From: a virus
Taxonomy: Duplodnaviria; Heunggongvirae; Uroviricota; Caudoviricetes
Strand: one strand, 5' to 3'
Length of the DNA: 20,716 nt
Virus record (IMG/VR): IMGVR_UViG_2541047849_000003
Span: 1-20,716 of that record
The position numbers and the translations under genes were made by a program. Below the pieces are notes generated by a model. The model saw only the letters and a program-made list of their open reading frames with translations. It did no database searches and had not been told where the DNA came from. Of this stretch, positions 1 through 18,349 are shown one piece after another (position 1 is the first letter of the stretch; every line of letters begins with the position of its first letter).

Positions 1-1284
1 TTACTTCTTCGCCTCTGCAACCACTTTACTACCCACGCCGCGGTTATTGTATTCCCACATGCGGTTGTAGTTAGTGTCATTCAGATTGCGCTGTATTTCG
101 TCGTTATCATCTACGCTGCCGGTATTACCCGCAAACGGACGATTAGAGATCACCGCATCGGCCCACGGTTTAGCCGTGTTAAAACCTTCGTTGATGGCGC
201 TATCACGGATCACCACCTGACCGTTGGTATTGGCATCAACATCCAGCGAGCGGCCCAGTTGCGCCACACCATCACCGAAAGCATTGAAACGGCTGTTTAC
301 GGCGAGGAAACCGTAGTAAATGTTGGACAGCGTAGCCGGTGCAAACACATACGCTTCTTGCTGAGTACGTGAGTTCACCACGCGGAATTCGGTGTTATCG
401 AACACCACTGCGCCGCGACCAGAAACGATATCCACATCCCCTTCAATGTAGCTGTTGGTCACCAGCGTACGCGGCTGACGATTCGTTTCCAGACGGTTCT
501 GCACACCGCTGTTGGTGACAAAGAAGGTGTTCTGACGACCGAGAATGTTAACGTTGTTAATCTGTACCTGGTCACCATCAGTACGCAGTGCCACCGCCGG
601 ATGGTTACCTGCATCTACGCTATCGCCCAGCGTGTTTTCGATGGTCAGATTTTGCAGTTGCAGGCCATTGTTTTGTGACCAGAAGACCGCAGAGCAGAGA
701 ACACCGATACTGTCGCTGCGTTTGCTCTGGCAGCTATCGTACATATACCACGCTGGTTTACCTGGCATATATTTGCCGCGCGGGTTGACGTCGTGACGCC
801 AGTCGGCAGGGCTCATGCCACCATCAAGGGAAAGCCCAATCTTCACATCAATCGGTTTTTCACCTGTACCGTACAGAGTAATTCCACCCGGAGCGGCAGG
901 GACATATACCGTTCCCTGATACTCACCAGGCATCACGGCAATATACTGGCGCTTGTTGGTACGCTTGATAATTGCCGCATCTACCGCCGCCTGAATCGTG
1001 GTATGCGTTACACCTTGAGTGCCCGCCGGGCCGACAACAAATTCAGGTTGCGCAGGCAGGGTAATCGGGGAAGGATTCCACGCTGCAGCACCTGGTGTCA
1101 GGGATGCAAAATAGTGTTGAGCATCGAAATTCTGCGCTTCTTTTGCCGACAGAATCGGGCGAGAAGAGGTACCAGGCGCGGTTTGATCAGAAGGACGTTG
1201 ATCGGGCGGGGTTGAGCTACAGGCGGTCAGCGTCACGCCAAAAGCCAATGCCAGCGCCAGACGGGAAACTGAAAATGTGTTCAC
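1..1284 (-). CDS. ybhC: Host outer-membrane lipoprotein YbhC (pectinesterase-fold, putative acyl-CoA thioesterase)
   Basis: Complete 427-aa ORF with stop at 1-3. N-terminus MNTFSVSRLALALAFGVTLTAC has a signal peptide and LTAC lipobox. ybhC is the known gal-side neighbour of the lambda attB site. Confidence 0.85.
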   Translation of the reverse strand: MNTFSVSRLALALAFGVTLTACSSTPPDQRPSDQTAPGTSSRPILSAKEAQNFDAQHYFASLTPGAAAWNPSPITLPAQPEFVVGPAGTQGVTHTTIQAAVDAAIIKRTNKRQYIAVMPGEYQGTVYVPAAPGGITLYGTGEKPIDVKIGLSLDGGMSPADWRHDVNPRGKYMPGKPAWYMYDSCQSKRSDSIGVLCSAVFWSQNNGLQLQNLTIENTLGDSVDAGNHPAVALRTDGDQVQINNVNILGRQNTFFVTNSGVQNRLETNRQPRTLVTNSYIEGDVDIVSGRGAVVFDNTEFRVVNSRTQQEAYVFAPATLSNIYYGFLAVNSRFNAFGDGVAQLGRSLDVDANTNGQVVIRDSAINEGFNTAKPWADAVISNRPFAGNTGSVDDNDEIQRNLNDTNYNRMWEYNNRGVGSKVVAEAKK

Positions 1285-1418: not shown

Positions 1419-2489
1419 TTATTTGATTTCAATTTTGTCCCACTCCCTGCCTCTGTCATCACGATACTGTGATGCCATGGTGTCCGACTTATGCCCGAGA
1501 AGATGTTGAGCAAACTTATCGCTTATCTGCTTCTCATAGAGTCTTGCAGACAAACTGCGCAACTCGTGAAAGGTAGGCGGATCCCCTTCGAAGGAAAGAC
1601 CTGATGCTTTTCGTGCGCGCATAAAATACCTTGATACTGTGCCGGATGAAAGCGGTTCACGACGAGTAGATGCAATTATGGTTTCTCCGCCAAGAATCTC
1701 TTTGCATTTATCAAGTGTTTCCTTCATTGATATTCCGAGAGCATCAACATGCAATGTTGTAGGGATGGCAATTTTTACGCCTGTTTTGCTTTGCTCGACG
1801 TAAAGATATCCATCTACGATATCAGACCACTTCATTTCGCATAAATCACCAACTCGCTGCCCGGTAACAACAGCCAGTTCCATTGCAAGTCTTAACCAAC
1901 ATGGTGATGATTCTGCTGCTTGATAAATTTTCAGGTATTCGTCAGCCGTAAGTCTTGATCTCCTTACCTCTGATTTTGCTGCGCGAGTGGCAGCGACAGG
2001 GTTTGTTGTTATATGGCCTTCAGCTATTGCCTCTCGGAATGCATCGCTCAGTGTTGATCTGATTAACTTGGCTGACGCAGCCTTGCCCTCGTCTATGTAT
2101 CCATTGAGCATTGCCGCAATTTCTTTTGTGGTGATGTCTTCAAGTGGAGCATCAGGCAGACCCCTCCTTATTGCTTTAATTTTGCTCATGTAATTTATGA
2201 GTGTCTTCTGCTTGATTCCTCTGCTGGCGAGGATTTTTTCGTAGCGATCAAGCCATGAATGTAACGTAACAGAATTATCACTGTTGATTCTCGCTGTCAG
2301 AGGCTTGTGTTTGTGTCCTGAAAATAACTCAATGTTGGCCTGTATAGCTTCAGTGATTGCTATCCTCCTGTCTCGGCCTAATCCAAACTCTTTACCCGTC
2401 CTTGGGTCCCTGTAGCAGTAATATCCATTGTTTCTTATATAAAGGTTAGGGGGTAAATCCCGGCGCTCATGACTTCGCCTTCTTCCCAT
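1419..2489 (-). CDS. int: Site-specific tyrosine integrase, lambda Int-like
   Basis: 356-aa ORF beginning MGRRRSHERRDLPPNLYIRNNGYYCYRDPRTGKEFGLGRDRR and ending ...HLLGHKSDTMASQYRDDRGREWDKIEIK, matching lambda Int as I recall it. Sits beside attL and overlaps xis as in lambda. Confidence 0.96.
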   Translation of the reverse strand: MGRRRSHERRDLPPNLYIRNNGYYCYRDPRTGKEFGLGRDRRIAITEAIQANIELFSGHKHKPLTARINSDNSVTLHSWLDRYEKILASRGIKQKTLINYMSKIKAIRRGLPDAPLEDITTKEIAAMLNGYIDEGKAASAKLIRSTLSDAFREAIAEGHITTNPVAATRAAKSEVRRSRLTADEYLKIYQAAESSPCWLRLAMELAVVTGQRVGDLCEMKWSDIVDGYLYVEQSKTGVKIAIPTTLHVDALGISMKETLDKCKEILGGETIIASTRREPLSSGTVSRYFMRARKASGLSFEGDPPTFHELRSLSARLYEKQISDKFAQHLLGHKSDTMASQYRDDRGREWDKIEIK

Positions 2490-2685
2490 TTCTGATCCTC
2501 TTCAAAAGGCTACCTGTTACTGGTCGATTTAAGTCAACCTTTACCGCTGATTCGTGGAACAGATACTCTCTTCCATCCTTAACCGGAGGAGGGAATATCC
2601 TGCATTCGCGCACCCATCGACGAACTGTTTCAAGGCTTCTTGGGCGTCGCTGGCGAGCGTTCCACTCCTGAAGTGTCAAGTACAT
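2467..2685 (-). CDS. xis: Excisionase, lambda Xis-like
   Basis: 72-aa ORF MYLTLQEWNARQRRPRSLETVRRWVRECRIFPPPVKDGREYLFHESAVKVDLNRPVTGSLLKRIRNGKKAKS. Its 3' end overlaps the int start by 23 nt, the lambda arrangement. Confidence 0.95.
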   Translation of the reverse strand: MYLTLQEWNARQRRPRSLETVRRWVRECRIFPPPVKDGREYLFHESAVKVDLNRPVTGSLLKRIRNGKKAKS

Positions 2686-2775
2686 CGCAAAGTCTCCGCA
2701 ATTACACGCAAGAAAAAACCGCCATCAGGCGGCTTGGTGTTCTTTCAGTTCTTCAATTCGAATATTGGTTACGTC

Positions 2776-3075
2776 TTATTCGATGCGCACTCCTGGTATT
2801 TCGCCTTTTGATATTGCGAAGTCATAAATTTGCGCAGCACTATACCCATCTCGCATCCATGAATCTAATGCGCGAATAGCCTCGCTACGCTTTTTATCTT
2901 CTCTCTCATTTTTGATATCAACGAGGACATCAACGCAATTAAGGCATATGTGGATTTTGTCCTTACATTCGATCATGGCGGCTTTACCATGATTTCCGCC
3001 ACACAGTGAGCATAAATCTTCAGGGTCTTGCTGGTATTTCTGTAACGTTAGAGGGTTTAATGTTGAACAGACCAT
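2776..3075 (-). CDS. Hypothetical small cysteine-rich protein (CxxC...CxxC, zinc-ribbon-like), early-left ea-region position
   Basis: ORF open to 3087. Three in-frame ATGs at the 5' end; the third (3073-3075) has GGAG 8 nt upstream. Same strand as int and xis. Contains CSLCGG and CLNC motifs. Confidence 0.5.
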   Translation of the reverse strand: MVCSTLNPLTLQKYQQDPEDLCSLCGGNHGKAAMIECKDKIHICLNCVDVLVDIKNEREDKKRSEAIRALDSWMRDGYSAAQIYDFAISKGEIPGVRIE

Positions 3076-3146
3076 AATCATCTCCATAAAACAAAATTCG
3101 CCGTAGCAAGTTCAGATAAAAGAAATCCCCGCGAGTGCGAGGATTG

Positions 3147-3323
3147 TTATTCAGTGCCGATATTTACCTTTATCGCGAACACCTTTACCGGTTTATCACC
3201 GAAGTGGGGATGTGTGATTGTCTTGATTTCATATCCGTTATACGGGACGTCAATTCTGCGACTTAAGTCTTCGCGCTTCGGATATCCCTTTGTGATAATC
3301 AGGCGGTCATACTCGCGGAACAT
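3147..3323 (-). CDS. Hypothetical 58-aa protein (MFREYDRLIITKGYPKREDLSRRIDVPYNGYEIKTITHPHFGDKPVKVFAIKVNIGTE)
   Basis: ATG-initiated ORF found by manual translation; it is below the length cutoff of the supplied track. Same orientation as int and xis. No convincing Shine-Dalgarno sequence. Confidence 0.25.
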   Translation of the reverse strand: MFREYDRLIITKGYPKREDLSRRIDVPYNGYEIKTITHPHFGDKPVKVFAIKVNIGTE

Positions 3324-3495
3324 AATTCGCTTATCGTAGAGAACAGAATTGGCATTATTCCAGCGCCAGAAAATGGATTATGGAAGGCAGCGCATAGAAA
3401 AGTTGGCAGTGATAGTACCCCATATCATATGACTCAAGATGAAAACCCACTCCGCGCTGCCATGATTGTCTTTCTCATGATGCAGGACGCCAATA

Positions 3496-3672
3496 ATGCT
3501 TAGCCCATCCCAATCCATTCAATACCAGAAAGAAAGCGTCGAGCGGGCTTTAACGTGCGCTAACTGCGGTCAGAAGCTGCATGTGCTGGAAGTTCACGTG
3601 TGCTCAGATTGCTGCGCAGAACTGATGAGCGATCCGAATAGCTCAATGTACGAGGAAGAAGACGATGAATGA
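3496..3672 (+). CDS. Hypothetical 58-aa cysteine-rich protein (CANCGQ...CSDCC), translationally coupled to the downstream Rha gene
   Basis: ATG at 3496; its stop TGA (3670-3672) overlaps the ATG of the next gene in an ATGAATGA arrangement. Putative metal-binding Cys cluster. Confidence 0.45.
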   Translation: MLSPSQSIQYQKESVERALTCANCGQKLHVLEVHVCSDCCAELMSDPNSSMYEEEDDE

Positions 3673-4282
3673 GTTAATAAATGGCAATGCCATCAAAATG
3701 ACAAGCATTGAAATCGCTGAGTTGGTTGGTAAGCGTCATGACAATGTGAAACGTACCATCGAAACGCTGGCTAAAAATGGTGTTATCCGGCTTCCTCAAA
3801 TTGAGGATTGTGTAAGAATCAATGGGTTAGGCTTAAATCAAAGTTTTTGTGTGTATGTATTCGAAGGCGAACAAGGAAAGCGAGACAGTATTGTCGTTGT
3901 AGCCCAGTTGTCGCCGGAATTCACCGCTCGTCTTGTTGACCGTTGGCGAGAGCTTGAAGAAACTGCGGTTAATATCCCCAAAACGCTACCAGAAGCGTTG
4001 CGCCTTGCTGCTGATCTTGCTGAGCAGAAAATGCAACTGGAAAACCAGCTCGCAATTGCCGCACCTAAAGTTGAGTTTGCCGATCGAGTTGGCGAGGCCA
4101 GCGGAATTTTGATTGGAAACTTTGCAAAGGTTGTCGGTATTGGTCCAAACAAACTGTTTGCGTGGATGCGTGATCACAAAATCCTTATTGCTTCAGGTTC
4201 CCGGCGAAATGTGCCAATGCAGGAATATATGGATCGCGGCTATTTCACAGTGAAAGAAACAGCGGTCAACCAGCGAAGATAG
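3665..4282 (+). CDS. Rha-family phage regulatory protein with KilA-C/ANT-type C-terminal domain, apparently 3'-truncated
   Basis: N-terminus has the Rha hallmark IAELVGKRHDNVKRTIETL. The C-terminal region (KLFAWMRDHKILIASGSRRNVPMQEYMDRGYFTVKE) resembles the KilA-C antirepressor domain but stops about 25-30 residues earlier than such domains normally do. AGGAAG ribosome-binding site upstream. Confidence 0.7.
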   Translation: MNELINGNAIKMTSIEIAELVGKRHDNVKRTIETLAKNGVIRLPQIEDCVRINGLGLNQSFCVYVFEGEQGKRDSIVVVAQLSPEFTARLVDRWRELEETAVNIPKTLPEALRLAADLAEQKMQLENQLAIAAPKVEFADRVGEASGILIGNFAKVVGIGPNKLFAWMRDHKILIASGSRRNVPMQEYMDRGYFTVKETAVNQRR

Positions 4283-4352
4283 CGCAGAGCATGGACTGGT
4301 AAAACACCTGCGCAAGACGATTAAAGAGAAAGACCGCGAGCTGAAAGAGCTG

Positions 4353-4955
4353 ATGCGTCAGTCTCAGAAACCCGTCGAGCAGCAGCCGGTAATCACTCAA
4401 CCACCGCGAATGCCAAAACTGGATGATGAGGACATCGGTTTCGATGAAGAAATCTATCAGCAACGCATGGCTAAGTGGGCAGAGGATAACGGAAAGTACC
4501 AGCAACAGGAGATGGCTCGCAAGCAGAAGGAGCAGGAGCTTCATGCTGCTTATCAAGAGCGATTATCCAAATATCAGCAACGTGTTAAGGCTCTCAAGGT
4601 TCCTGGCTATCAGGAAGCAGAACAGGCCGTACTCGAGGAAATCCCCATCGAGACACAAAACGCGATCCTGTTTGAGTCAGAGAAGCCGGAAATCGTTGTT
4701 CTGGCGCTCGGTCGCAACGCTGAACTGCGCAAGCAACTGGCAGAAGCTACCAACCCCGTAGCAATTGGTCGTCTGCTGGAACGTATCGAATCGAAGGCCA
4801 GAATCATGCCAAAAGCAAAAACCACGGCAGCCACAACCCCGACAGTTAAGGGGAGCAACGGCGCAGTAATCAATAACCTCGACAAACTGAAAGCCAAGGC
4901 GCTGGAAACTGGTGACTGGACGCCGTATTTCGCCGCTAAAAAGGCAAAAAAATAA
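4353..4955 (+). CDS. P22-like scaffolding protein, N-terminally truncated remnant (reading frame open from 4254)
   Basis: C-terminal region (LGRNAELRKQLAEATNPVAIGRLLERIESK...KLKAKALETGDW) resembles the coat-binding C-terminus of P22 gp8. Lies immediately upstream of the coat gene. Scaffold-like sequence continues in frame upstream of the first ATG back to 4254, with no start codon there. Confidence 0.6.
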   Translation: MRQSQKPVEQQPVITQPPRMPKLDDEDIGFDEEIYQQRMAKWAEDNGKYQQQEMARKQKEQELHAAYQERLSKYQQRVKALKVPGYQEAEQAVLEEIPIETQNAILFESEKPEIVVLALGRNAELRKQLAEATNPVAIGRLLERIESKARIMPKAKTTAATTPTVKGSNGAVINNLDKLKAKALETGDWTPYFAAKKAKK

Positions 4956-4973
4956 CCTATCGGAGCATTAAGC

Positions 4974-6227
4974 ATGGCTAACCAATTAGCAAAAGACCTT
5001 GAAATCATGTTCGAAAACTACGTTGAAGGCTTTGAGGCCGCCTGCGTAGTTTCCCGTAACGCTAAAAAATTCCGTCCCGGTGATACCGCAATGCAGCGAG
5101 CAGGTGATGTTCTGTATCGTCCGCAGCATTACCACATGAACATTGAAGAAGGCCTCGATCTCAGCGGCAAAACGCCTACAGCACTGGTTCAGCGCCTTGT
5201 TCCTTCTGTGTTCAAGGAGCCGAAAAACATTCTGTACACTCTGGATGCGCGTGAAATGCGTGACCCGGAACATAAAACTGAAGCTGGTCGCGCCGCAGGT
5301 ATGCGCCTTGCTGCACAGATTGACTCTGACCTGATTTCCATGGTCACGCAGCGTGCTACTAACGTGATCACAATGGCTGACTCAACAACTGGTTCACAGG
5401 GCCGTGATTTGTGGAACTGTGCGGCAGGTATTGATGCCACCATGACGGCGATTGGTGTACCTCAGGGTATCAACCGTCGCTCTTTCTGGAACCCCTTCAA
5501 CTACAAAGACCTTGCTGGCGAGCTTGGTCACCGTGCCTATGCTCAGGGCGCAACCCTGACAGCATACGAAAAAGCGCAGATCCCTCCGGTTGCGTCCTTC
5601 GATAGCTACAAGACCGATATTTCTGGTCGTGTTCCGAAGGGTACAGCAACTTCCATTACGCTGGCAGCAGCACCTGCGCACAAGGTTGAAGCGAAAGATG
5701 CTAACGATATGCCAGTGGATAACCGACAGGGGACCATTACGGTATCTGCATCTGGTTTGCAGGTTGGCGATGCGTTTACCATCGCAGGGGTGAATTCCGT
5801 ACACCAGATCACCAAAGATACCACCGGGCAGCCGCAGGTATTCCGCGTTCTGGCAGTTAGCGGAACGACAGTAACTATCTCCCCGAAAATTCTGCCGCCT
5901 GACAACGCGGATGTCGCCAGCCGTCCATATGCAAACGTTGATGCTAATGCGGCAAGTAGCGCAGCAATCACCATTCTCAACAAAAATGCCGCACCGGCTA
6001 ACCTGTTCTGGGCTGATGGTTCTGTTGAACTGATGTACGGCAAACTGGCGTTCCCGACTGGTCAGGGTCCACAGGTAATGACAGCAACCACCGAGCAGGG
6101 CGCTACGCTGATCATGTCTTACGCCTTCGACCACATCAAAGGCGTAACCACTGCGCGTTTCACCACTCTGTACGGTTGCTCTGTACTGGTTCCTGAATAT
6201 ACGGGCATCGTTATTGCCGGGCAGTAA
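4974..6227 (+). CDS. Major capsid (coat) protein, P22 gp5-like
   Basis: 417-aa ORF with GGAG ribosome-binding site. Overall architecture and the C-terminal FWADGSVEL motif resemble P22 coat protein. Followed by a strong terminator. Confidence 0.85.
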   Translation: MANQLAKDLEIMFENYVEGFEAACVVSRNAKKFRPGDTAMQRAGDVLYRPQHYHMNIEEGLDLSGKTPTALVQRLVPSVFKEPKNILYTLDAREMRDPEHKTEAGRAAGMRLAAQIDSDLISMVTQRATNVITMADSTTGSQGRDLWNCAAGIDATMTAIGVPQGINRRSFWNPFNYKDLAGELGHRAYAQGATLTAYEKAQIPPVASFDSYKTDISGRVPKGTATSITLAAAPAHKVEAKDANDMPVDNRQGTITVSASGLQVGDAFTIAGVNSVHQITKDTTGQPQVFRVLAVSGTTVTISPKILPPDNADVASRPYANVDANAASSAAITILNKNAAPANLFWADGSVELMYGKLAFPTGQGPQVMTATTEQGATLIMSYAFDHIKGVTTARFTTLYGCSVLVPEYTGIVIAGQ

Positions 6228-6234
6228 TTTAGGT

Positions 6235-6256
6235 GGGGCTTCGGCCCCATTTTTAT
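6235..6256 (+). terminator. Rho-independent terminator after the coat gene
   Basis: GGGGC-TTCG-GCCCC hairpin with a GNRA-like tetraloop, followed by ATTTTTATT. Confidence 0.6.
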
Positions 6257-6268
6257 TGGGAGAAGACA

Positions 6269-6457
6269 ATGGCACGAACAATGCTCTATAAGCCGGGCAA
6301 CATGATCACCTGTGGTCAGTTTGCTGTCGATTACATCATTGTTGATGACGAAGAAGTTAAATCTCACCTGAAAAAAGGCTGGGTAAAAACTCCTGAAGAA
6401 ACCGCAACGAAGCAAAAAGTGGCTAAGGCGGAAGAAGATGGCGAAAACGAAGGGTGA
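6269..6457 (+). CDS. Hypothetical small protein between coat and gp4-like genes
   Basis: ATG at 6269 preceded by GGGAGAAG. 62 aa; overlaps the next gene start by 20 nt. Confidence 0.45.
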   Translation: MARTMLYKPGNMITCGQFAVDYIIVDDEEVKSHLKKGWVKTPEETATKQKVAKAEEDGENEG

Positions 6458-6899
6458 TCTCGTTCTTAAGGCTTTACGAAAAGCCGGGCTGTATTCCAAT
6501 GCCACGTTGACAGATGCTGACCCTCAGGCAATTGAAGATGCCATTAATGACCTCGAAGACATGATGGCAGCATGGCAGGCTAAAGGTATCGAGCTTGGAT
6601 ATCAGTTTGCTGATACAGAAAACGGCATCATGCCGTTACCTGACGATGATTCAGGTATCCCTGCATGGGCAAATGATGGCGTCGCTTTGAAACTCGCTGT
6701 GCAAGTGTGCATGGATAACGTCATTCAGCCGTCAGACGCTCTCCTTACCGCTGCTGACAGTGCATATCAAACAATCTGTATCGCTTTAACCAAAATACCA
6801 CCACTTGAGCGACGAAATGACATGCCTCGCGGGGCGGGGTTAAAAAGCGCGTTTACGTGGAATCGGTTTTACATCGAGAAAGATGATCCGAGTACGTGA
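6438..6899 (+). CDS. Head completion / tail accessory protein, P22 gp4-like
   Basis: 153 aa. N-terminus KTKGDLV..ALRKAG...ATLTD and the LEDMMAAWQ motif resemble P22 gp4. Gene order after coat matches P22. Confidence 0.8.
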   Translation: MAKTKGDLVLKALRKAGLYSNATLTDADPQAIEDAINDLEDMMAAWQAKGIELGYQFADTENGIMPLPDDDSGIPAWANDGVALKLAVQVCMDNVIQPSDALLTAADSAYQTICIALTKIPPLERRNDMPRGAGLKSAFTWNRFYIEKDDPST

Positions 6900-6908
6900 G
6901 GTGAATAA

Positions 6909-8327
6909 ATGCCGATTCAGCAACTTCCGCTTATGAAAGGTGTCGGCAAAGACTTTCGAAACGCCGACTATATCGACTATCTGCCAGTGAATATGTTGGC
7001 TACACCCAAAGAAATCCTTAACAGCAGCGGATATCTTCGCTCATTCCCTGGCATTGCCAAACGTTCTGATGTGAACGGTGCATCTCGCGGCGTCGAGTAC
7101 AACATGGCGCAGAATGCTGTTTATCGCGTATGTGGTGGCAAGCTGTACAAAGGAGAAAGCGAGGTCGGTGATGTTGCCGGAAGTGGTCGCGTATCAATGG
7201 CGCATGGTCGAACATCTCAGGCGGTAGGCGTTAATGGTCAACTGGTAGAGTATCGCTATGATGGCACGGTTAAAACCGTCTCAAACTGGCCTGCAGACAG
7301 CGGATTCACTCAGTATGAGTTAGGTTCGGTTCGTGACATTACGCGCTTGCGCGGGCGTTATGCGTGGTCAAAAGACGGCACTGATTCATGGTTTATCACT
7401 GACCTTGGAGACGAATCACATCCTGACCGTTACAGCGCACAATATCGCGCAGAATCGCAGCCTGACGGCATCATCGGCATCGGAACATGGCGAGACTTCA
7501 TCGTATGCTTTGGTTCATCAACGATTGAATATTTCTCCCTGACTGGTGCAACCACCGTTGGTGCTGCTTTGTATGTCGCGCAGCCATCGCTGATGGTGCA
7601 AAAAGGCATCGCCGGAACTTACTGCAAAACGCCGTTTGCTGATTCCTATGCGTTCATCAGCAATCCGGCAACAGGTGCGCCGTCTGTGTACATCATCGGC
7701 TCCGGTCAGGTGTCACCAATCGCCAGCGCGAGCATTGAGAAAATACTACGCTCCTACACTGCTGATGAACTGGCTGATGGCGTAATGGAATCGTTGCGGT
7801 TTGATGCTCATGAGTTGCTGATTATCCACCTGCCGCGCCATGTTCTTGTTTACGACGCATCTTCAAGTGCCAATGGTCCGCAATGGTGTGTGCTGAAAAC
7901 AGGCCTGTATGACGATGTGTACCGCGCTATCGACTTCATTTACGAAGGCAATCAGATAACGTGCGGCGATAAGCTGGAATCTGTTACCGGGAAACTGCAG
8001 TTCGATATCAGCAGCCAGTACGACAAGCAACAGGAACACCTGCTGTTTACTCCACTGTTCAAAGCGGATAACGCCAGAGTTTTCGACCTTGAGGTTGAAT
8101 CGTCAACTGGCGTTGCGCAGTACGCCGACCGCCTGTTCCTCTCTGCAACCACTGACGGCATCAATTACGGACGTGAGCAGATGATTGAGCAGAATGAACC
8201 GTTCGTTTACGACAAACGCGTTTTGTGGAAGAAAGTAGGGCGCATCAGGAAAAACATTGGCTTCAAATTGCGCGTTATCACGAAGTCACCTGTCACTCTG
8301 TCTGGCGCTCAGATAAGGATTGAGTAA
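6909..8327 (+). CDS. Tail accessory protein, P22 gp10-like
   Basis: 472 aa, the same length as P22 gp10. N-terminus [49 protein letters not shown] matches my recollection of gp10. Confidence 0.85.
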
Positions 8328-9028
8328 TGGTTGATTCATCACTGAATGATCCTGTCGTGGTTCAGGCTACGCGCCTTGATGCTTCAATTTTGCCACGCAA
8401 TATATTCAGCCAGTCTTACCTGCTGTATGTCATAAATCAGGGTGCTGATGTTGGCGCAATTGCCGGGAAGGCAAATCAGGCTGGTCAGGGCGCTTACGAT
8501 GCTCAGGTAAAAAACGATGAACAGGACGTCGAACTGGCAGATCATGACGCAAGAATCACCGCAAACACAAAAGCGATAAATCTCCTTGAGGTCAGGTTAA
8601 CAACCGCCGAAGGGAAGATAGTCGTACTGCGTAGCGATGTTGATTACTTGCTGGATGAGGTTATCGCTATTCAGGCGCATCTGGTCACTGTTGACCAAAG
8701 ACTGGATGGCATAGAAAGCGATGTATCTGACATTAAGAGTGATTACGTATCGAAAACCGTAACCGAATCGCAGTCTCTTGCGTCACCGCTGGATGTAAAA
8801 ACATCATATTCAGTTGATGGAATTCAGGTAGTTGGAGCAAGGCAGACTGGATGGACTGCAGCCACAGGTACGCCACTTCTTGGCTCATTCAACGCAAACC
8901 AGTCATACACGGTCGGCACTACGTACACACAATCCGAAGTCGCGGCTCTCGCTACAGGTTTGCAGCAGGCGCGGCAGCGTATTCTGGCGCTTGAAACAGC
9001 ACTTAGATTACATGGGCTGATTGACTGA
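8327..9028 (+). CDS. Tail needle protein, P22 gp26-like
   Basis: 233 aa, the same length as P22 gp26. Shares the conserved N-terminus ([21 protein letters not shown]) and C-terminus ([32 protein letters not shown]). Start overlaps the upstream stop (TAATG). Confidence 0.85.
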
Positions 9029-9483
9029 TGATTACATTCAAACCAACGCGAAACATCGACCTGATAGAAGCAGTAGGAAATCACCCTGACATTATTGCCG
9101 GGAGCAACAACGGTGATGGATACGACTACAAACCTGAATGCCGTTACTTTGAGGTGAACGTGCACGGGCAGTTCGGCGGCATTGTTTACTATCAGGAGAT
9201 TCAGCCGCTTACATTCGATTGCCACGCCATGTACCTGCCAGAGGTTCGTGGATTCAGCAAGGAAATCGGACTGGAGTTCTGGCGATACATTCTGACTAAC
9301 ACCACTGTTCAGTGTGTCACATCGTTCGCTGCGCGCAAATTCCGCCACGGGCAGATGTACTGCGCAATGATTGGCCTTAAGCGTGTAGGAACCATCAAGA
9401 AATACTTCAAAGGCGTGGATGACGTGACGTTTTATAGCGCCACACGCGAAGAACTAATCGACTTCCTGAATCACGGGAGATAG
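9028..9483 (+). CDS. P22 gp14-like protein
   Basis: 151 aa. Position and N-terminus [21 protein letters not shown] are consistent with P22 gp14. Start overlaps the upstream stop (TGATG). Confidence 0.7.
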   Translation: MITFKPTRNIDLIEAVGNHPDIIAGSNNGDGYDYKPECRYFEVNVHGQFGGIVYYQEIQPLTFDCHAMYLPEVRGFSKEIGLEFWRYILTNTTVQCVTSFAARKFRHGQMYCAMIGLKRVGTIKKYFKGVDDVTFYSATREELIDFLNHGR

Positions 9484-9485
9484 CC

Positions 9486-10178
9486 ATGTTATATGCATTT
9501 AAGCTGGGCAGAAAACTGCGCGGCGAGGAACCTTATTGCCCTGAAAAGGGTGGGAAAGGTGGCAGTTCTGATAAAAGCGCAAAGTATGCAGCAGAAGCTC
9601 AGAAGTATGCCGCAGACCTGCAAAATCAGCAGTTCAACACCATCATGAACAACCTGAAGCCGTTTACTCCTCTGGCTGATAAGTATGTCGGTAGCCTAGA
9701 GAACTTATCGTCTCTGGAAGGGCAAGGTCAGGCGCTTAACCAGTATTACAACTCTCAGCAGTATAAAGACCTTGCAGATCAGGCTCGCTATCAGAGTCTG
9801 GCGGCAGCGGAAGCAACAGGTGGATTGGGTTCCACTGCAACCGGTAATCAGTTAGCAACAATCGCACCAACGCTTGGTCAGCAATGGCTATCTGGACAAA
9901 TGAACAATTACAACAACCTGGCAAATATCGGTCTTGGCGCTCTTCAGGGGCAGGCAAACGCCGGGCAAACATATGCCAACAACATGAGTCAGATTTCACA
10001 GCAAAGCGCGGCGCTGGCTGCGGCAAACGCCAACCGACCGTCAGCATTGCAGCAGGGGGTTAGTGGTGCTGCATCCGGTGCGCTTTTGGGTGGTGGCATA
10101 GCCAGTGCTCTCGAGCTATCAACTCCGTGGGGGGCTGCGATCGGTGGCGGTCTTGGTCTGCTTGGCTCGTTGTTTTAA
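9486..10178 (+). CDS. Ejection (internal virion) protein, P22 gp7-like
   Basis: 230 aa against 229 in P22 gp7. Gln/Asn/Gly-rich, low-complexity C-terminus. Gene order conserved. Confidence 0.7.
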   Translation: MLYAFKLGRKLRGEEPYCPEKGGKGGSSDKSAKYAAEAQKYAADLQNQQFNTIMNNLKPFTPLADKYVGSLENLSSLEGQGQALNQYYNSQQYKDLADQARYQSLAAAEATGGLGSTATGNQLATIAPTLGQQWLSGQMNNYNNLANIGLGALQGQANAGQTYANNMSQISQQSAALAAANANRPSALQQGVSGAASGALLGGGIASALELSTPWGAAIGGGLGLLGSLF

Positions 10179-10188
10179 GGGGTAATCA

Positions 10189-11553
10189 ATGGCTACGTGG
10201 CAACAGGGTATTAATTCTGGTGGTTTTCTGGCTGGCATCGGTACGCAAAACGAGAATGCACCAAAGGCAAGCGACATTAACGCAACGCTTGGTCTGATCC
10301 GCGAAAACAATGAGTTGGGTCGATCAGGTGCAAATAACGTTGGTCTGACAGGTCTTCGAGGTCTGGCTGGAGTTGCTGATATTTATAAGCAGCAGCAACA
10401 GCAGGAGCGTAAAGCGGCATTCCAGAAAGGTTATGCAGATGCTTATGCGTCCGGCGACAGGGAGCAGATGCGTAATCTTATTACAGCATTCCCTGAAGAG
10501 TTTGAGGAAGTCCGTAAAGGCATGGGGTATGTCGATGACGCCCAGCGGGATGACTTTGGCAATCTGGCGCTCAAGGCTCAGGTAGCTTCGTCGCTTGGTC
10601 CGGGCGCATTTGGCAGGTTCATGATGGATAACGAAAAGGAGATGCGTCGTTTAGGTATCCCTCCAGAAACTATTGCGGAAATGCAGGTTAATGACCCGCA
10701 GGGCTTCCAGCACTTCGCAGGTAATCTGGCACTGTTTTCTCTCGGCCATGAGAAGTACTTCGATATCAAAGATCGAATGGAGGGGCGTCGACTTGAAGGA
10801 GAAAGAAATCAGTTAACCGCTCGTGGTCAGGATATCACGATGCGCGGTCAGGATTTATCTGCTGCTACTGCTCGGAGAGGTCAGGATTTAGCGATGCAGA
10901 GAGCATCAATGAAAGGGGCTGTTGGTAATAATGAGCGCACAGTTCAACTAGCAGACGGAAGAACTGTAACCGTAGGCGGGAAGCTTCATGGTGCAGGGGC
11001 TAACGCGTTCTATGAAGGCATAGACAATGAGGGGAACATGGTTCGCGTTCCTGCTGGCTCTATTGCCGCTCCGGCCACGTCGGCAGCAAGCGCGCAGAAT
11101 TACGCAATGAAGAAAGATCTTGATGCAATTTCTGGTGCATCAATTGACGATCTTGGCTTCATGACTGGCATTACAGGCTCTTCAGGTTCTCCTGCTCTTG
11201 GTGCAGATATTCGTAGCCGTGCATCTGGTGGTGATCAGAGGAAACTATACAACGCTGCACAGCGAATCCAAGGAAAGATGCAGAATCAGGGCATTGCAGC
11301 AGCCAGAGACATGGGGGCATCCGGTATCAACACCGTTGCAGAAGCAAAGATGTATTTTCAAGGTATGCCACAGGTTGATTTCTCAAGCCCTGAAGCACTG
11401 CAACAATCAATGCGCGACATTCAGCAATATACCGACAATTACAACCAGCAATATAACGTTAATGTTGGTAAATCTCAGCGGCAGCAATCTCAACCTACAC
11501 AGGCATCACAGCCAGCAGCCAGCAGTAATTTTTCTTCACTATGGGGTGATTAA
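10189..11553 (+). CDS. Ejection protein, P22 gp20-like
   Basis: 454 aa against 471 in P22 gp20. AAGGGG ribosome-binding site. Gene order conserved. Confidence 0.7.
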
Positions 11554-13427
11554 TGGCTAAAGCATGGAAGGATGTTATCGCCTCTCCACAGTATCAGGCG
11601 TTAACTGAAGAACAGAAAGCACAGGCTCAAGCGCAATATTTTGATGAGGTTGTTGCCCCTAAGGCTGGTGACAAATGGGCTGAAGCAAGAGATCAGTTTT
11701 ATGCAGCATACCCTCCGCCTCAGCAGCAGAAAGAAGAACCATCATTGATGCAACAAGCTGGCGATTGGCTCACAGGTGGTCAAAGTGCCGGGCAAATTGC
11801 AGAACAGGCTGGTCGTGGTCTGGTAAACATACCATTTGACGTATTGCAGGGTGGCGCAAGTCTGATTAATGCTATCAGCCAGGGGCTTGGTGGCCCAAAG
11901 GTTTTGGATGATGTTTATCGCCCTGTCGATCGACCGACAGACCCCTACGCACAAGCCGGTGAAACAATTGGTGGGTATTTAGTTCCAGGAGTTGGAACGG
12001 CAGGAAGCATGGCTATTGGATCACTGGCAGAGGCCGCAAATCAGAAAGGCGATTTCGCACAAAATGCAGCTAAAAATGCCGGAGTTAACCTTGCCGCTCA
12101 AGGTGTTCTTTCCGCAGCAGCAAAGGGAATAGGGCGTGGAATAACGGCTATAAAAGGTGATATTGCGCCAGAAGTGGCGAAGAAAATTGCCACATCAGAA
12201 TCGATGGGCGTGACACCAATGACATCTGATGTTATCCCGCCGAAAAATGCTTTCACTCGCGGCCTTACTCAGGATGCCGAGGGGGCTTTGCTCGGGACGG
12301 GCTCAAAGCGAGCAGAGCAATATGCAACGCGTAGTAAGCTGGTAAGCAATTATTTTGACCGTTTTGGTGAGTACAACCCTGATGATGTGGTGAAATCTCT
12401 GACCACCACGTTAAGGGGACGGAAGGATACTGCTGGCGCTGTTATCAATGACGTCACCAATAAAATGGGTAATGCCGCAGTTGATACCACAAATACCATG
12501 AATGCTCTGAATACAGCGATCGCAAGACAGGAACGGCTTGGGACTTCAGCCAATCAAAGCCTGCTTACATCCTTGCGTAACCTACGTGAAGAATTAGCAA
12601 ACCCTGCAACTGATTTGGATGTTACGTTTGATCTCTTGCGTCAGCACAGAACAGCCTTTAGATCTAATGTTCAGGGAGATGCTATGGTCTTCCCCAACCA
12701 GGCAAAAGCAGCTACCAATATGGTAGAGAATGCAATGTCAAAAGACCTTCGTAACGCAGTTGCTAAAAACCTCGGTGCATCAGACGCAGCAAAATACCTT
12801 AAAGCAAATTCCGATTATGCAAACGTTTATAATAAGGTGCTTAATAAAAACATTGCTAACAAACTCAACAAGGCAAGCAGTGAAGCCAGTCCTGAACTTA
12901 TAAATACCGTTGTATTAAGCAGAAAACCATCTGACGTGAAACGAATCTGGAGCGCACTGGATGATAAAGGGAAAGATGCTATGCGTGCAGCTTACGTCAG
13001 CAAAATAGCGGAAAAGGCCGGTGACTCTCCAGCCAAGTTCATCACTGAAGTTAATAAGCTGAAATCTCAGTCAGGCGGTGAAATTTACAACACTATTTTT
13101 TCTGGAAAGCACATGAAAGAACTTGATGCTCTTAATGAAGTTCTACAGCAAACAGCAAGGTCAGACACCGCAAATGTAGTAACTCAGACGGGGCAATCGC
13201 AAGCCAACAGGATAAGGACGATTGGCGCAACTGCGACTCTTGGCGTATCAATGGGGCTTGAGGCTGGTTTCGGTGCAATGATGCGCTTGTATGAGTCCAA
13301 AGCAGCAAGGAATGCGCTCTTACGTCTGGCAAACACCAAAGCAGGAACGCCAGCCTATGAAAGAGCATTAAGTAACGCTGCAAATGCCATCAGACCGCTG
13401 CTTGCCACTGAGGCAACACAGCAGTGA
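11553..13427 (+). CDS. Ejection protein, P22 gp16-like
   Basis: 624 aa against 609 in P22 gp16. Start overlaps the gp20-like stop (TAATG). Gene order conserved. Confidence 0.7.
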
Positions 13428-13444
13428 CTAAATGCCATGGATGG

Positions 13445-13633
13445 CTATTTCCCTAGCACATGAAACAATGTTTGCTTTAATTCCACCCATACAATTATGA
13501 CCACTATAGACAGACAAAAGAAACTGAATGCATTGGCATCACGATCGAAACCTTCTCCGGCACTAAATCCGTAAAAGGTCATAAAAAATATAAAAATTGC
13601 GCACTTTGCAACGTTTACAAATTTTTTCTTCAC
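13445..13633 (-). CDS. Hypothetical small membrane protein (Lys-rich N-terminus, two hydrophobic segments)
   Basis: GTG start at 13631-13633 preceded by AAGGAGG with a 5-nt spacer. The supplied track extends the same frame to an ATG at 13708 without a ribosome-binding site. Hydrophobic stretches CAIFIFFMTFYGF and FSFFCLSIVVIIVWV. Confidence 0.4.
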   Translation of the reverse strand: MKKKFVNVAKCAIFIFFMTFYGFSAGEGFDRDANAFSFFCLSIVVIIVWVELKQTLFHVLGK

Positions 13634-13696
13634 ACCAACCTCCTTAGTTTTGAGCAGGATACCAGATGATAATGTGTAGTTGGAGTAGCGCGGTTG

Positions 13697-13787
13697 TAAT
13701 GCAAGCATTTTGTTTTGGTTTTATGCTTGCTTGTATGTGTGTACAGTGTATATAATGCAAGCATGTATCACAACAAGGTGCTTGCAT
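13697..13787 (+). promoter_or_regulatory. Promoter (-35 TTGCTT 13727-13732, -10 TATAAT 13751-13756) embedded in four copies of an operator-like motif ATGCAAGCA(T) in alternating orientation
   Basis: Forward copies at 13699-13708 and 13755-13764; reverse-complement copies at 13723-13730 and 13779-13787. A perfect TATAAT lies 18 bp after a TTG-containing -35. AAGGTG ribosome-binding site 8 nt before the ATG at 13789. Confidence 0.4.
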
Positions 13788-13788
13788 T

Positions 13789-14781
13789 ATGACTGAAAAG
13801 AAAAGTGGCGAAGGGAAAGCTAAGGGCGGTATCGCTCGCGCAAAGTCGCTGACTAAAGAGCAGCGTTCTGAAATAGCAAAGAAAGCAGCGGCTGCAAGAT
13901 GGAAGGATAAACCATTAATTGCTACGCATAAGGGATCGTTCCAGCATGAATTCGGGATTGATGTTGAGTGCTATGTGTTAAATGATGATAACAAAACTGC
14001 CGTTATTAGCCAGAGAGGCATGGGAGAAGCGATTGGTCTTGGCGAAGGTGGCAGCAGGTTGCCAAAGTTTATTCAGGGGAAAACTATTTCTCAGTATATC
14101 GGGCATGAATTAAGGGCAAAACTTGAAAATCCTCTTATTTTTCAATACAAACAGGCGGGCACGAACACTCCAGCTAATCCTGTAATACATGGCTACGATG
14201 TAACAATATTAATTGATTTATGTCGAGCAATCTCTAATGCTAAAGCCGAAGGTAAGTTGCTTTCCAGTCAGGAAGGGATTGCTAAGCAAGCCAGAATCAT
14301 TATTGATGCATCAGCCAAGGCGGGCATTCAGGGGCTTGTTTATGCTTTGGCAGGGTATGACAGAACAAAAGAAGAGGTAATTCAAGCATATAAGCGATAT
14401 GTTGCTGAAGAGGCTCGTGAGTATGAAAGAGAGTTCACCCCTGAACTTTATGAGCATTGGTATCGTCTGTATGGTATAGACAAACCAGTTAGAGGGCGAC
14501 CATGGGCGTTTAAATATCTTACGATAGATCACATTTATTACCCATTAGCCAGAAGTGAAGGAAAGGTATTTAATTTAGCAAAAACGTCAAAAGAAGAAAA
14601 AGGCAGCAAAAACGATAAAATACACCAGTTTTTATCAGAGGTTGGAGTTAAGGCTCTTAGAACCCAAATAGGTAAGGTTACTGGTATTGCAATGGTTTCT
14701 GATACTCGAGAAGAGTATGAGAAATACATAGATGAAAAGGTTATTGGACAAAGAACCATAGACTTAAAAGATAAAGAATAA
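13789..14781 (+). CDS. Hypothetical accessory protein, probably P63C-domain family (phage regulatory or antirepressor-associated domain of unknown function)
   Basis: 330 aa. Basic N-terminal tail GGIARAKSLTKEQRSEIAKKAAAARW, then ...ECYVLNDDNKTAVISQRGMGEAIGLGEGGSRLPKF..., which matches my memory of the conserved P63C core. AT-rich codon usage unlike the flanking structural genes. Own promoter upstream and terminator downstream. Confidence 0.6.
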   Translation: MTEKKSGEGKAKGGIARAKSLTKEQRSEIAKKAAAARWKDKPLIATHKGSFQHEFGIDVECYVLNDDNKTAVISQRGMGEAIGLGEGGSRLPKFIQGKTISQYIGHELRAKLENPLIFQYKQAGTNTPANPVIHGYDVTILIDLCRAISNAKAEGKLLSSQEGIAKQARIIIDASAKAGIQGLVYALAGYDRTKEEVIQAYKRYVAEEAREYEREFTPELYEHWYRLYGIDKPVRGRPWAFKYLTIDHIYYPLARSEGKVFNLAKTSKEEKGSKNDKIHQFLSEVGVKALRTQIGKVTGIAMVSDTREEYEKYIDEKVIGQRTIDLKDKE

Positions 14782-14809: not shown

Positions 14810-15183
14810 ATAAGGAGTAATCATGATTTACCCATCAAACAACCCACCAGTTTGCCTGATTGGATGCCAGCCTTGCAGTTTTTATGGAATTAATTATGCC
14901 ATGCTCAAGAGCCTTGTTAGCATCCAAAATGGTCGAGTCTGCTATCAGGGATGCCCACCTAATATGGGTTCCGATGTCGATATTGAACGTCTCAACGAAG
15001 CGATCAAGATCGTTATCGAGGCATTTCCCGTACTCTCTCAATCTGGCATGGTCGGCGGCTGGGGAGGCAAAGCACCATAATAGAGGATGTAACAGGAATC
15101 TTGATAATGGGTTTGCGAAACGTTCTGAGCCAGCCAGGAAAACGATATTAGCTATGGATTCAACATTGCTTATGTTGTGAGTT

Positions 15184-15187
15184 CTAA
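15184..15187. repeat. IS5 target-site duplication CTAA, left copy (right copy at 16383-16386)
   Basis: Identical 4-bp CTAA immediately flanks both inverted-repeat ends of the IS element. IS5 is known to duplicate a YTAR tetramer. Confidence 0.8.
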
Positions 15188-16382
<1,195 letters not shown>

Positions 16383-16569
16383 CTAACGGTAACAGGGAGT
16401 GACTTAAGAAAGTTATACGCAGTAAAGCCAGCGGCAGTTTCCCCTCCCTGACTTGATATATGGATATTTAATTCAGTTGCGCCTTGAGATAATGCGGTGA
16501 GACAGTGGTTCTGAAGTTGCCCAACAGTGGCAGTGTTAACGGGGCATAAGAAATGAATTGTGTGCAGCA

Positions 16570-16818
16570 TTATTTTTCATCCTTACCATACATGGTCTTT
16601 AGCGTCTCAAGCAGCGCCTCTTTGAATTTGTCAGCTTCTTGCTGAGCAAATGACTCAACTGACTTTGGCGACCTATCTTCATCAATCGCGGCTTGCAAAA
16701 TCATGACGATCTCGGAGTTAACAGAGCGACCATTTTTTGATGCTCTGACAGCAAGAGCCTCGCGTAAAGATTCAGGGATTCTTACCGTAGTTGGAGAAAT
16801 TGACACACCCTTTGCCAT
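16570..16818 (-). CDS. mnt: Ribbon-helix-helix repressor, P22 Mnt-like
   Basis: 82 aa against 83 in P22 Mnt. Contains the RHH signature NGRSVNSEI. Transcribed divergently from the arc-like gene. AAAGGTG ribosome-binding site. Confidence 0.8.
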   Translation of the reverse strand: MAKGVSISPTTVRIPESLREALAVRASKNGRSVNSEIVMILQAAIDEDRSPKSVESFAQQEADKFKEALLETLKTMYGKDEK

Positions 16819-16932
16819 ATCACACCTTTGGTATTCAATTTGATATCAAAGTGTATGCAAAAAAATTTTGACTAGATATACTCACTTTGCTATCTTTTGT
16901 ATTCGAAAAGAGTTGTTTGTGTGGAGGGTAAC
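16819..16932. promoter_or_regulatory. Divergent mnt / arc-ant promoter-operator region with a 12-bp perfect palindrome TTTGATATCAAA (16839-16850) and a candidate rightward promoter (TTGACT 16867-16872, TATCTT 16890-16895)
   Basis: Intergenic region between divergently transcribed RHH repressor genes. The perfect palindrome is a plausible RHH-dimer operator. The -35/-10 pair has 17-bp spacing. Confidence 0.45.
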
Positions 16933-17085
16933 ATGGAGAAAGAAATAAGTAAGATTTTGGTAAGGATGCCGCAGTCGTTAAAGGATGCTATAGGTAGCAG
17001 GGCAAAGGAAGAGTGCAGGTCGTTTAACTCAGAGGTTATCAAGCGCCTGATAGACAGCTTGAAGAGAGAGGGGGTAATGGTATGA
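16933..17085 (+). CDS. arc: Ribbon-helix-helix repressor, P22 Arc-like
   Basis: 50 aa from the ATG at 16933 (GGAGG upstream); the supplied track extends the frame to 16897. The RMPQSLKDAIGSRAKEECRSFNSEVIKRL region matches the Arc/Mnt RHH fold pattern (P22 Arc: NLRWPREVLDLVRKVAEENGRSVNSEIYQRV). Confidence 0.75.
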   Translation: MEKEISKILVRMPQSLKDAIGSRAKEECRSFNSEVIKRLIDSLKREGVMV

Positions 17086-17285
17086 GTAAAGAATGTTGTT
17101 TCTGCGGCATTAGCGAATCAGACGCTGATCAAACATACATTTACTCTAAAGAAACAGGTCGGATGCTGTGTAGTGACTGCGTGTTGGACATCATAAGATA
17201 CAAGCATCTTGGATGTTCTGCCAGCATTAGCAATATAGGTGAAGTATATGAAGGGAAAGATATAACTGATAGAGCAGAAAGTTGA
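17082..17285 (+). CDS. Hypothetical Cys4 zinc-ribbon-like small protein inserted between arc and ant
   Basis: 67 aa with CCFCG and CSDC motifs. ATG overlaps the arc-like stop (ATGA). P22 has no ORF at this position, as far as I recall. Confidence 0.45.
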
Positions 17286-17347
17286 AGCCCCAACTGCGGG
17301 AACAGTCAGGGCTTCGGTTGTCAGTAAATCCGTGGAGAAAAACCAAC

Positions 17348-18250
17348 ATGAATAGTATAGCAATTTTAGAAGCAGTGAACACCTCTTACGTACCATTCAA
17401 CGGTCAGCAAATTATCACCGCCATGGCTGCCGGAGTTGCATATGTTGCGATGAAGCCAATCGTTGAAAACCTTGGAATGAGCTGGTCAACGCAGCAAACA
17501 AAACTCATGAAGCAGATTAGCAAATTCAACTGTGTTCATATGAACATGGTTGCCGCTGATGGGAAGCTTCGTAAGCTACTCTGCCTTCCTTTGAAGAAGT
17601 TAAATGGATGGCTGTTCAGCATCAACCCTGAGAAAGTTCGTGCTGACATCCGCGATAAACTGATTCAGTACCAGGAAGAATGCTTTACTGTGCTGCATGA
17701 CTACTGGACAAAGGGAAAGGCAGAAAATGCACGTAAGAAAACATCTGTTGATGACAGGACTCCGCTTCGTGATGCTGTAAATATGCTGGTCAGCAAAAAG
17801 CATCTAATGTACCCAGAAGCTTATGCAATGATTCATCAGCGTTTCAATGTGGAAAGTATTGAAGAGCTTGATGCGTCTCAGATACCGCAAGCCGTAGAGT
17901 ACATCCACAGGGTAGTGCTTGAAGGCGAATTCATCGGCAAACAAGAGAAGAAAACCAACGAGCTTTCTGCAAAAGAAGCAAACAGCCTTGTATGGCTATG
18001 GGATTATGCCAACCGCTCACAGGCATTATTCCGCGAACTGTATCCGGCGCTGAAACAAATTCAATCGAACTATTCCGGCAGATGTCATGACTGCGGTTAT
18101 GAGTTCTCCCGTATTATCGATATAGCGAGAGACGTTTTAATCAATCACTCACGAGATGTTGATATCAATGAGCCAGACGGACCAACGAATCTTTCCGCAT
18201 GGATGAGACTTAAGAATAAAGAATTACCTCCTTCAGTACATAACTACTGA
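17348..18250 (+). CDS. ant: Antirepressor, P22 Ant-like
   Basis: 300 aa from the ATG at 17348 (GGAG upstream); the supplied track's upstream start at 17282 is a TTG. Sits after mnt and arc and before the tailspike, as in P22 immI. N-terminus [21 protein letters not shown]. Confidence 0.8.
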
Positions 18251-18292: not shown

Positions 18293-18349
18293 ATGCCCAA
18301 AATTCACCGTAGCTACGCTGCGGCGATTCCTTGTATCTGGAGTAATGAA

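Follow-up and report, generated by a model that had tools for sequence, protein, structure and literature searches.

The DNA analysed here (‘the window’) is a 20,716-nucleotide stretch, IMG/VR virus record IMGVR_UViG_2541047849_000003, that is 100% identical to part of the Escherichia coli KOEGE 7 (16a) scaffold KE701198.1 (assembly GCA_000459575.1). It carries the remnant of a P22-like prophage, which occupies the classical lambda attB with ybhC on one side and ybhB/bioA on the other. Our subject is the place inside this remnant at which two genes, one encoding a Rha/KilAC antirepressor and the other the virion scaffolding protein, run directly into each other, each having lost the end that faces its neighbour.

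Working through the join from left to right, we first see a plus-strand open reading frame (ORF) of 205 amino acids (aa), annotated ‘Roi’, at 3665–4282. It encodes a truncated Rha/KilAC antirepressor and ends in ...TVKETAVNQRR, as the initial annotation had already read from the sequence. The full-length protein has 240 aa in loci L001, L005 and L007, with relatives ranging from 240 to 242 aa; the window retains native codons 1–202 of 240, through position 4270, after which the residues QRR and the stop codon are supplied out of frame by scaffold DNA, at a cost of 38 C-terminal KilAC residues. Over the retained part, 200 of 202 residues are identical to the L007 protein. Pfam profiles tell the same story: the Rha domain is complete (positions 1–91 of 91), whilst the ANT/KilAC domain is covered from 1 to 80 of 108, as against 1 to 106 of 108 in the full-length protein. 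Within the Rha/KilAC antirepressor class (PF09669 plus PF03374) the gene product is thus a truncated member by descent, lacking a complete KilAC domain; with the last quarter of that domain missing, it is probably inactive. The exact 205-aa protein is on record in two to three contigs and, outside a contig from the Logan assemblies (see below), is found only in KOEGE 7.

Immediately beyond lies the scaffold remnant (4267–4955, plus strand), comprising residues 70–297 of a 297-aa protein and devoid of a promoter, a ribosome-binding site and a start codon. Its frame is open from 4254, where it reads ...STSEDSAEHGLVKHLRKTIKEKDRELKELMRQSQ..., and contains no ATG, GTG or TTG ahead of the ATG at 4353, again as previously noted. 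This ATG, the first in-frame start, is scaffold codon 98 and opens an ORF of 200 aa; the 86 nt on its 5′ side are scaffold codons 70–97, in frame and abutting kilAC codon 202. The scaffold protein has therefore lost 69 residues when counted by sequence and 97 when counted by ORF, such that an earlier estimate of around 100 absent N-terminal residues suits the ORF, with 69 being the figure for the DNA itself. A P22-type scaffolding protein has about 300 aa and its own start, and is encoded between portal and coat; what we find here is shorter, begins internally, and has kilAC in place of portal as its upstream neighbour.

The remnant agrees with the scaffold of locus L002 at 228 of 229 positions (the stop codon counted) and, at the DNA level, is ~99.5% identical to the 297-aa scaffolds of E. 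coli P22-like phages. These are the decisive matches. The likeness to P22 gp8 on which the initial annotation had relied is in the right register, with scaffold residues 138–276 aligning to gp8 133–276 (PDB: 8i1v), but weak (E = 7e-4). For the truncated protein, the Pfam Phage-scaffold profile (PF09306) reaches 24.1 bits, the cut-off being 25; the full-length 297-aa scaffold returns no match in a Pfam scan, which we take to be a filter or bias effect rather than biology. In each of the 80 closest IMG/VR loci, which are 99–100% identical over the C-terminal 200 aa of the scaffold, an in-frame upstream extension gives a 297-aa ORF (80 of 80). A 200-aa scaffold ORF sharing the internal Met and differing by one substitution (Q64 not H64; P0018) is also seen, on 14 contigs.

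The point at which the two genes meet (‘junction B’, 4267–4270) is sharply defined. When positions 3400–5100 were compared by megablast with 5,426 complete E. coli genomes, 1,819 genomes contained matches: those annotated NinX, NinF or ‘phage antirepressor KilAC domain-containing protein’ stop at window position 4270, those annotated ‘scaffolding protein’ or ‘P22 major capsid protein’ start at 4267, and none of the 1,819 genomes spans the junction. Matching phage records behave likewise, all 414 of them starting at 4267, with phiv205-1, JEP4 and CUS-3 as the best. A three-way alignment resolves the join to the base; the kilAC parent reads ...GCGGTCAAC/ACAAAT and the scaffold parent ...TTCGCCAAC/CAGCGA, and the window reads GCGGTCAACCAGCGA, which places the crossover inside CAAC, a tetranucleotide common to both parents. 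The proposal in the initial annotation of a deletion junction joining a C-truncated Rha/KilAC gene to an N-truncated scaffold gene is thus borne out at base level, and the microhomology that it recommended looking for is present, at 4 bp. At a random join, an overlap of at least 4 bp has a probability of 0.016 per junction.

A second join of the same kind (‘junction A’) is found at 3331–3334. Here, the remnant of a gene for an ASCH-domain protein (3147–3334, minus strand; out of 285 nt, only the 3′-terminal 188 remain, a loss of 97 nt that includes the start codon) stands head-to-head with a 5′-truncated ninX (3331–3503, plus strand), the 3′ half of a 348–360-nt gene, matching only positions 62–114 of 114 in the Pfam Phage_P22_NinX profile. 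Leftward matches to the early-left ASCH gene (L006 2943–3227) end at 3334 and ninX matches begin at 3328. In the alignment, ASCH reads ...CGCTTAT/TCCAGT, ninX reads ...CGATTAT/CGTAGAG, and the window reads CGCTTATCGTAGAG; TTAT is a perfect overlap, or 6 of 7 bases if CGCTTAT is scored against CGATTAT. Between the two joins sits an island of 937 bp holding, in native order and orientation, what is left of ninX, an intact ninF (3496–3672, plus strand; 58 aa, PF05810), and the truncated kilAC. In locus L007 (4097–4812), the closest relative of this island, an HNH endonuclease gene has inserted in ninF, leaving one complete ninF and a second, partial copy; no such insertion is present in the window.

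At neither join do we see a long repeat, an insertion sequence (IS) end or a recombinase site, and the parents are colinear with the product on either side, as is characteristic of microhomology-mediated deletion. Deletion mediated by an IS was considered and rejected: the sole IS of the remnant (IS5, 15188–16382) lies 11 kb away from junction B, and no IS end adjoins either join. An independently made Logan assembly (run ERR4578576) also contains both junctions, in a contig recorded in five samples that matches the window over 14,282 bp at 100% identity, whilst the exact 21–27-mers across the junctions score zero in JGI metagenome contigs, GTDB representative genomes and IMG/VR. The scar is real, yet confined to a very small lineage.

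Could there have been no deletion at all, with a native 200-aa scaffold starting at 4353 behind a native 205-aa Rha protein, or with the join created during assembly? GenBank does list both products as ordinary proteins (ERB08952.1, ‘DNA-binding protein Roi’; ERB08953.1, ‘phage scaffold protein’), and the P0018 variant on its 14 contigs shows that a 200-aa scaffold ORF has been recorded elsewhere. Against this stand the scaffold codons 70–97 that precede ATG 4353 without a start and abut kilAC codon 202, the ANT domain cut off at position 80 of 108, and the lengths seen in relatives (297 aa for the scaffold in 80 of 80 closest loci; 240–242 aa for KilAC), which dispose of the native short-gene arrangement that the initial annotation had itself put forward as the counter-case. 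An assembly chimera is rejected, the junction being identical in two independent assemblies over 14.3 kb. We regard this whole line of explanation as practically discounted. Our reading is that 4267–4270 is the scar of an illegitimate, microhomology-mediated (CAAC) deletion in a P22-like prophage, with another such scar (TTAT) at 3331–3334, and we give this reading a probability of roughly 0.88.

The extent of what was removed can be gauged from related prophages. In strain 998, an intact prophage occupies the same att site, with ~98% identity to the window in the int region and ~95% in the late region, and the endpoints of junction B lie 9,324 bp apart; in the arrangement of the L001/L002 type they are ~8.96 kb apart. 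Judged from this interval in the relatives, junction B took the 3′ end of kilAC, DUF1364, rusA, ninH, the antiterminator gene Q, holin, endolysin and Rz, as well as small accessory genes, the small and large terminases, portal, and scaffold codons 1–69. In P22, the small-terminase gene also holds the pac site. Deletion B would, in this account, have joined codon 202 of the nin-region Rha/KilAC gene to scaffold codon 69/70 with the removal of ~9 kb.

For junction A the corresponding interval in strain 998 is ~12.5–13 kb, and contains the remaining early-left genes (ea genes, recT, kil, cIII), an N-like regulator, a cI-type repressor of the LexA family, cro and cII, the genes for replication, ninB and ninE; the 5′ half of ninX was removed as well. 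As immC and the replication genes fall in this interval, they were lost through junction A and not through junction B. Deletion A would therefore account for ~13 kb more, covering the early-left operon, immC, replication and the proximal nin genes. The initial annotation had envisaged one deletion of at least 20 kb; junction B on its own spans only 9.0–9.3 kb, with the ~13 kb of junction A being a separate gap. Gene order across both scars is colinear with that of the intact strain 998 prophage, where the att cores are 39,722 bp apart compared with 19,789 bp here (of which 1,199 bp are IS5 and its target duplication). Together, the two deletions would have shrunk a prophage of ~39.7 kb to a remnant of 19.8 kb, 1.2 kb of it IS5.

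None of the P22-type portal, terminase, lysis cassette, Q, immC repressor/cro or replication genes is present between attL and attR (gene tables L003, L025), and these absent core genes sit in the intervals that are missing relative to L001, L002 and L005; the element is accordingly not a complete functional prophage. The statement that terminases, portal and lysis genes are lacking in the window consequently holds for the whole element. Nor do terminase and portal lie just outside, as a rearrangement would have it, the DNA to the left (ybhJ/ybhC) and to the right (ybhB/bioA/bioB) of the remnant being that of the host. The parallel statement that the immunity modules are missing is half right: immC went with junction A, but the immI module (mnt-like, arc and ant genes) is kept at 16570–18250.

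The composition of the island bears on a further possibility, namely that junction B is not an internal deletion but a product of illegitimate recombination between elements, either two prophages or a prophage and an infecting phage, the nin island having come from a different lambdoid prophage in the same cell. Lambdoid and P22-like phages are highly mosaic, and the nearest match to the island (L007, 97–99%) comes from a genome other than those that best match the late region (H6 and others, 99.5%). However, NinF–KilAC occupies exactly this position in P22-like relatives: L001 covers NinX–NinF–KilAC upstream of Q, lysis and terminase as far as the large terminase, the last gene in that locus, whilst L005, from the att site used here too, has NinF–KilAC upstream of Q, lysis and terminase and continues through portal and scaffold. 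Order and orientation are those of one prophage with a single attL and attR, and had two chromosomal prophages exchanged DNA, host sequence would also have been deleted or inverted, whereas the host flanks are normal. We consider an origin of this kind quite improbable.

As to mechanism, RecA-independent illegitimate recombination in E. coli proceeds by replication slippage or copy-choice, or by alternative end-joining that uses microhomology. Either a RecA-independent slipped-strand/copy-choice event or microhomology-using alternative end-joining may have acted at each scar, and we infer that the two scars arose as separate events. They could instead have been made together, in one compound event of replication-based template switching with two forward jumps, in which the 0.94-kb island was copied between two stretches that were skipped (similar to fork stalling and template switching, FoSTeS, or microhomology-mediated break-induced replication, MMBIR). 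Such an event would fit the shared signature of junctions A and B (4-bp microhomology, native order and orientation), their spacing of only 937 bp, and the absence, from the genomes and contigs searched, of any that carries one without the other. This last point says little given how sparsely the lineage is sampled, the exact 205-aa protein being on only two to three contigs, and related prophages commonly carry single deletions of independent origin (L021 and L017, see below), making two in one element unsurprising. A compound origin is a possibility to be kept in mind, albeit a doubtful one.

Several observations weigh against our reading of two microhomology-mediated deletions, or limit its precision. 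The fourth base of the overlap at junction B depends on the parental kilAC allele, which is CAAC in L005 and L007 and CAAT in L001; had the parent carried an L001-type allele, the overlap would be CAA. P22-like prophages are mosaic, making the deletion sizes estimates from relatives (for junction B, 8.96 kb in the L001-type and 9.32 kb in the strain 998-type arrangement). Across complete E. coli genomes, IMG/VR, JGI metagenomes and GTDB representatives there is no intermediate with only one junction. Finally, the non-inducibility and transcriptional silence that we attribute to the remnant are predictions.

To the right of the scars, the P22-type late genes continue at intact length from 4974 to 13427 on the plus strand (Pfam): coat (417 aa), a 62-aa ORF, gp4, gp10, the gp26 needle, gp14, and the ejection proteins gp7, gp20 and gp16. 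From coat through to the tailspike further on, PF11651, PF11650, PF11134, PF11039, PF25688, PF16928, PF26808 and PF09008 follow one another in P22 order, identifying a P22-like late operon with 93–99% DNA identity to P22-like E. coli phages. The length of each late-gene product also occurs among intact relatives (L018–L024), and many intact prophages encode a gp16 that is 100% identical to this one. Within 4974–13427 we see no frameshifts or other further decay; because of this, the deletions look recent.

With PL/PR, N, cI/cro, the O/P-type replication genes, and Q together with its late promoter all gone, the nin island and the late genes would have no native promoter, and a consensus scan finds no plus-strand promoter-like site in 2600–5100. 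Lacking any promoter-regulator circuit, replication, lysis, terminase and portal genes, the remnant is predicted to be incapable of being induced, replicating, lysing the cell, packaging DNA or forming virions. This agrees with the non-inducible remnant proposed by the initial annotation, since, by gene content, everything needed for induction appears to be gone. The truncated KilAC and scaffold products are presumably without function.

For the scaffold product, N-terminal truncations of P22 gp8, studied both in vitro and in vivo, provide a point of reference. The 200-aa ORF (residues 98–297) is equivalent to approximately gp8 93–303, and should hold the whole counterpart of the assembly-competent gp8 fragment 141–303 along with the C-terminal coat-binding part. 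According to a preprint (bioRxiv 10.1101/2022.12.13.520362), fragment 141–303 suffices for procapsid-like assembly, whilst in P22 removal of the first 57 residues is already enough to prevent scaffold exit and DNA packaging. By comparison, the truncation in the window is a deletion accident, without a promoter or ribosome-binding site, in a distantly related protein. Without a portal, nothing infectious could form even with the 200-aa scaffold.

This leaves the idea that the remnant has been retained as something useful, in that coat and an internally initiated 200-aa scaffold, transcribed from a fortuitous or read-through promoter, might form portal-less procapsid-like shells, or that the ejection proteins, tailspike and immI might confer exclusion or surface modification. 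If true, it would explain why ~9 kb of late genes are without a frameshift; we judge it very improbable indeed.

Amongst known elements, the closest comparison is with intact P22-like (Lederbergvirus-type) E. coli prophages and phages (strain 998, phiv205-1, JEP4, CUS-3, Sf101), which have the same late-gene set and order at 93–99% DNA identity, the common order being scaffold, coat, gp4, gp10, gp26, gp14, gp7, gp20, gp16, immI, tailspike. The strain 998 prophage additionally shares the lambda-type int/xis and att core, and a like nin layout in which kilAC follows ninF. Relative to these intact relatives, ~21–22 kb is missing from the window (early-left, N/cI/cro/cII, replication, ninB/E, the distal nin genes, Q, holin/endolysin/Rz, both terminases, portal, and the first 69 scaffold codons) and IS5 has been gained. 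In E. coli K-12, the classical cryptic lambdoid prophages (DLP12, Rac, Qin and e14) are defective and att-bounded, with internal deletions, IS insertion and some intact genes. The remnant resembles them in being att-bounded, internally deleted, IS-bearing and, by its gene content, defective, with a subset of genes intact; it differs in being derived from a P22-like podovirus, in belonging to a very small lineage, and in that its retained genes are without further decay, so that it looks much younger.

Independent internal deletions are present in other prophages of this group, two of which (L021 and L017) have lost overlapping regions. In L021, a metagenome contig from the same ybhC site, an early-left gene is joined to gp20 at ~nt 518 (8786–10001), and in L017 (CP135488.1; 14650–16000) a gp26 fragment lies beside the abc2 region and a fragment of Q. 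The breakpoints differ, and related P22-like prophages appear to lose the central core repeatedly.

What we describe is ordinary prophage decay; the kind of event is well known, this scar itself being undescribed. It offers a base-resolved example of how P22-like prophages decay, in which internal deletions at short microhomologies take out the central genes for regulation, replication, lysis and packaging, whilst the int and tail ends survive. Scars like these, surveyed systematically, could show how biased deletion is during prophage decay, but a single case adds nothing new in kind. Beyond correct annotation it matters little: ERB08952.1 and ERB08953.1 are truncation products that should carry a pseudogene mark, and the element should score as a defective, not an inducible, prophage.

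The boundaries of the remnant are well preserved. The window opens inside the host gene ybhC (1–1284, minus strand), beyond which the attL core GCTTTTTTATACTAA (1331–1345) is identical to the lambda att core and is the longest sequence common to the ybhC–int spacer and the DNA that follows the tailspike gene (L025 19568–19582). In the source contig a second core (attR) lies ~404 bp past the window end, followed by ybhB, bioA and bioB; one attL and one attR therefore bound the remnant, at a core-to-core length of 19,789 bp. Next to attL are a full-length tyrosine integrase of 356 aa (1419–2489, minus strand; Pfam Phage_integrase and Arm-DNA-bind_1), equal in length to that of the intact strain 998 prophage, and a full-length excisionase of 72 aa (2467–2685, minus strand; PF07825 Exc). 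The virion genes are P22-like, yet integrase and excisionase are of the lambda type, with the exact 15-bp lambda att core at 1331–1345.

Between gp16 and immI, positions 13445–14781 contain a minus-strand gene of 87 aa that matches no family and a gene of 330 aa with a P63C domain. Strain 998 has at this place a gene annotated as superinfection exclusion protein A (sieA), and the two genes of the window are possibly accessory or exclusion genes. A clpP-like accessory gene, of 178 aa in intact relatives, survives as two minus-strand fragments (~14835–15187 and 16383–16570), split by an IS5 of 1,195 bp (15188–16382, minus strand) with inverted repeats GGAAGGTGCGAA... and a CTAA target duplication. 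This IS5 is part of the decay of the remnant and uninvolved in either junction. A phage satellite, such as one resembling a phage-inducible chromosomal island (PICI), was rejected as an identity for the element, there being no replication or regulator module and every gene being 93–99% identical to an ordinary P22-like gene, in phage order.

The immI-type module (16570–18250), retained though immC was lost, comprises a Mnt/Arc-like ribbon-helix-helix gene (16570–16818, minus strand), arc (16933–17085, plus strand), a 67-aa ORF, and the ant antirepressor gene (17348–18250, plus strand), whose product has both P22_AR_N and P22_AR_C domains and, being intact, could in principle act on co-resident prophages. 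The last phage gene, encoding the tailspike (18293–20716, plus strand), ends with its stop codon at the end of the window; the protein carries a P22 head-binding domain, a pectate-lyase-like domain and, at its C terminus, a Peptidase_S74 (endosialidase chaperone) domain, and differs from the 981-aa endosialidase tailspikes of the close relatives L008 and L010.

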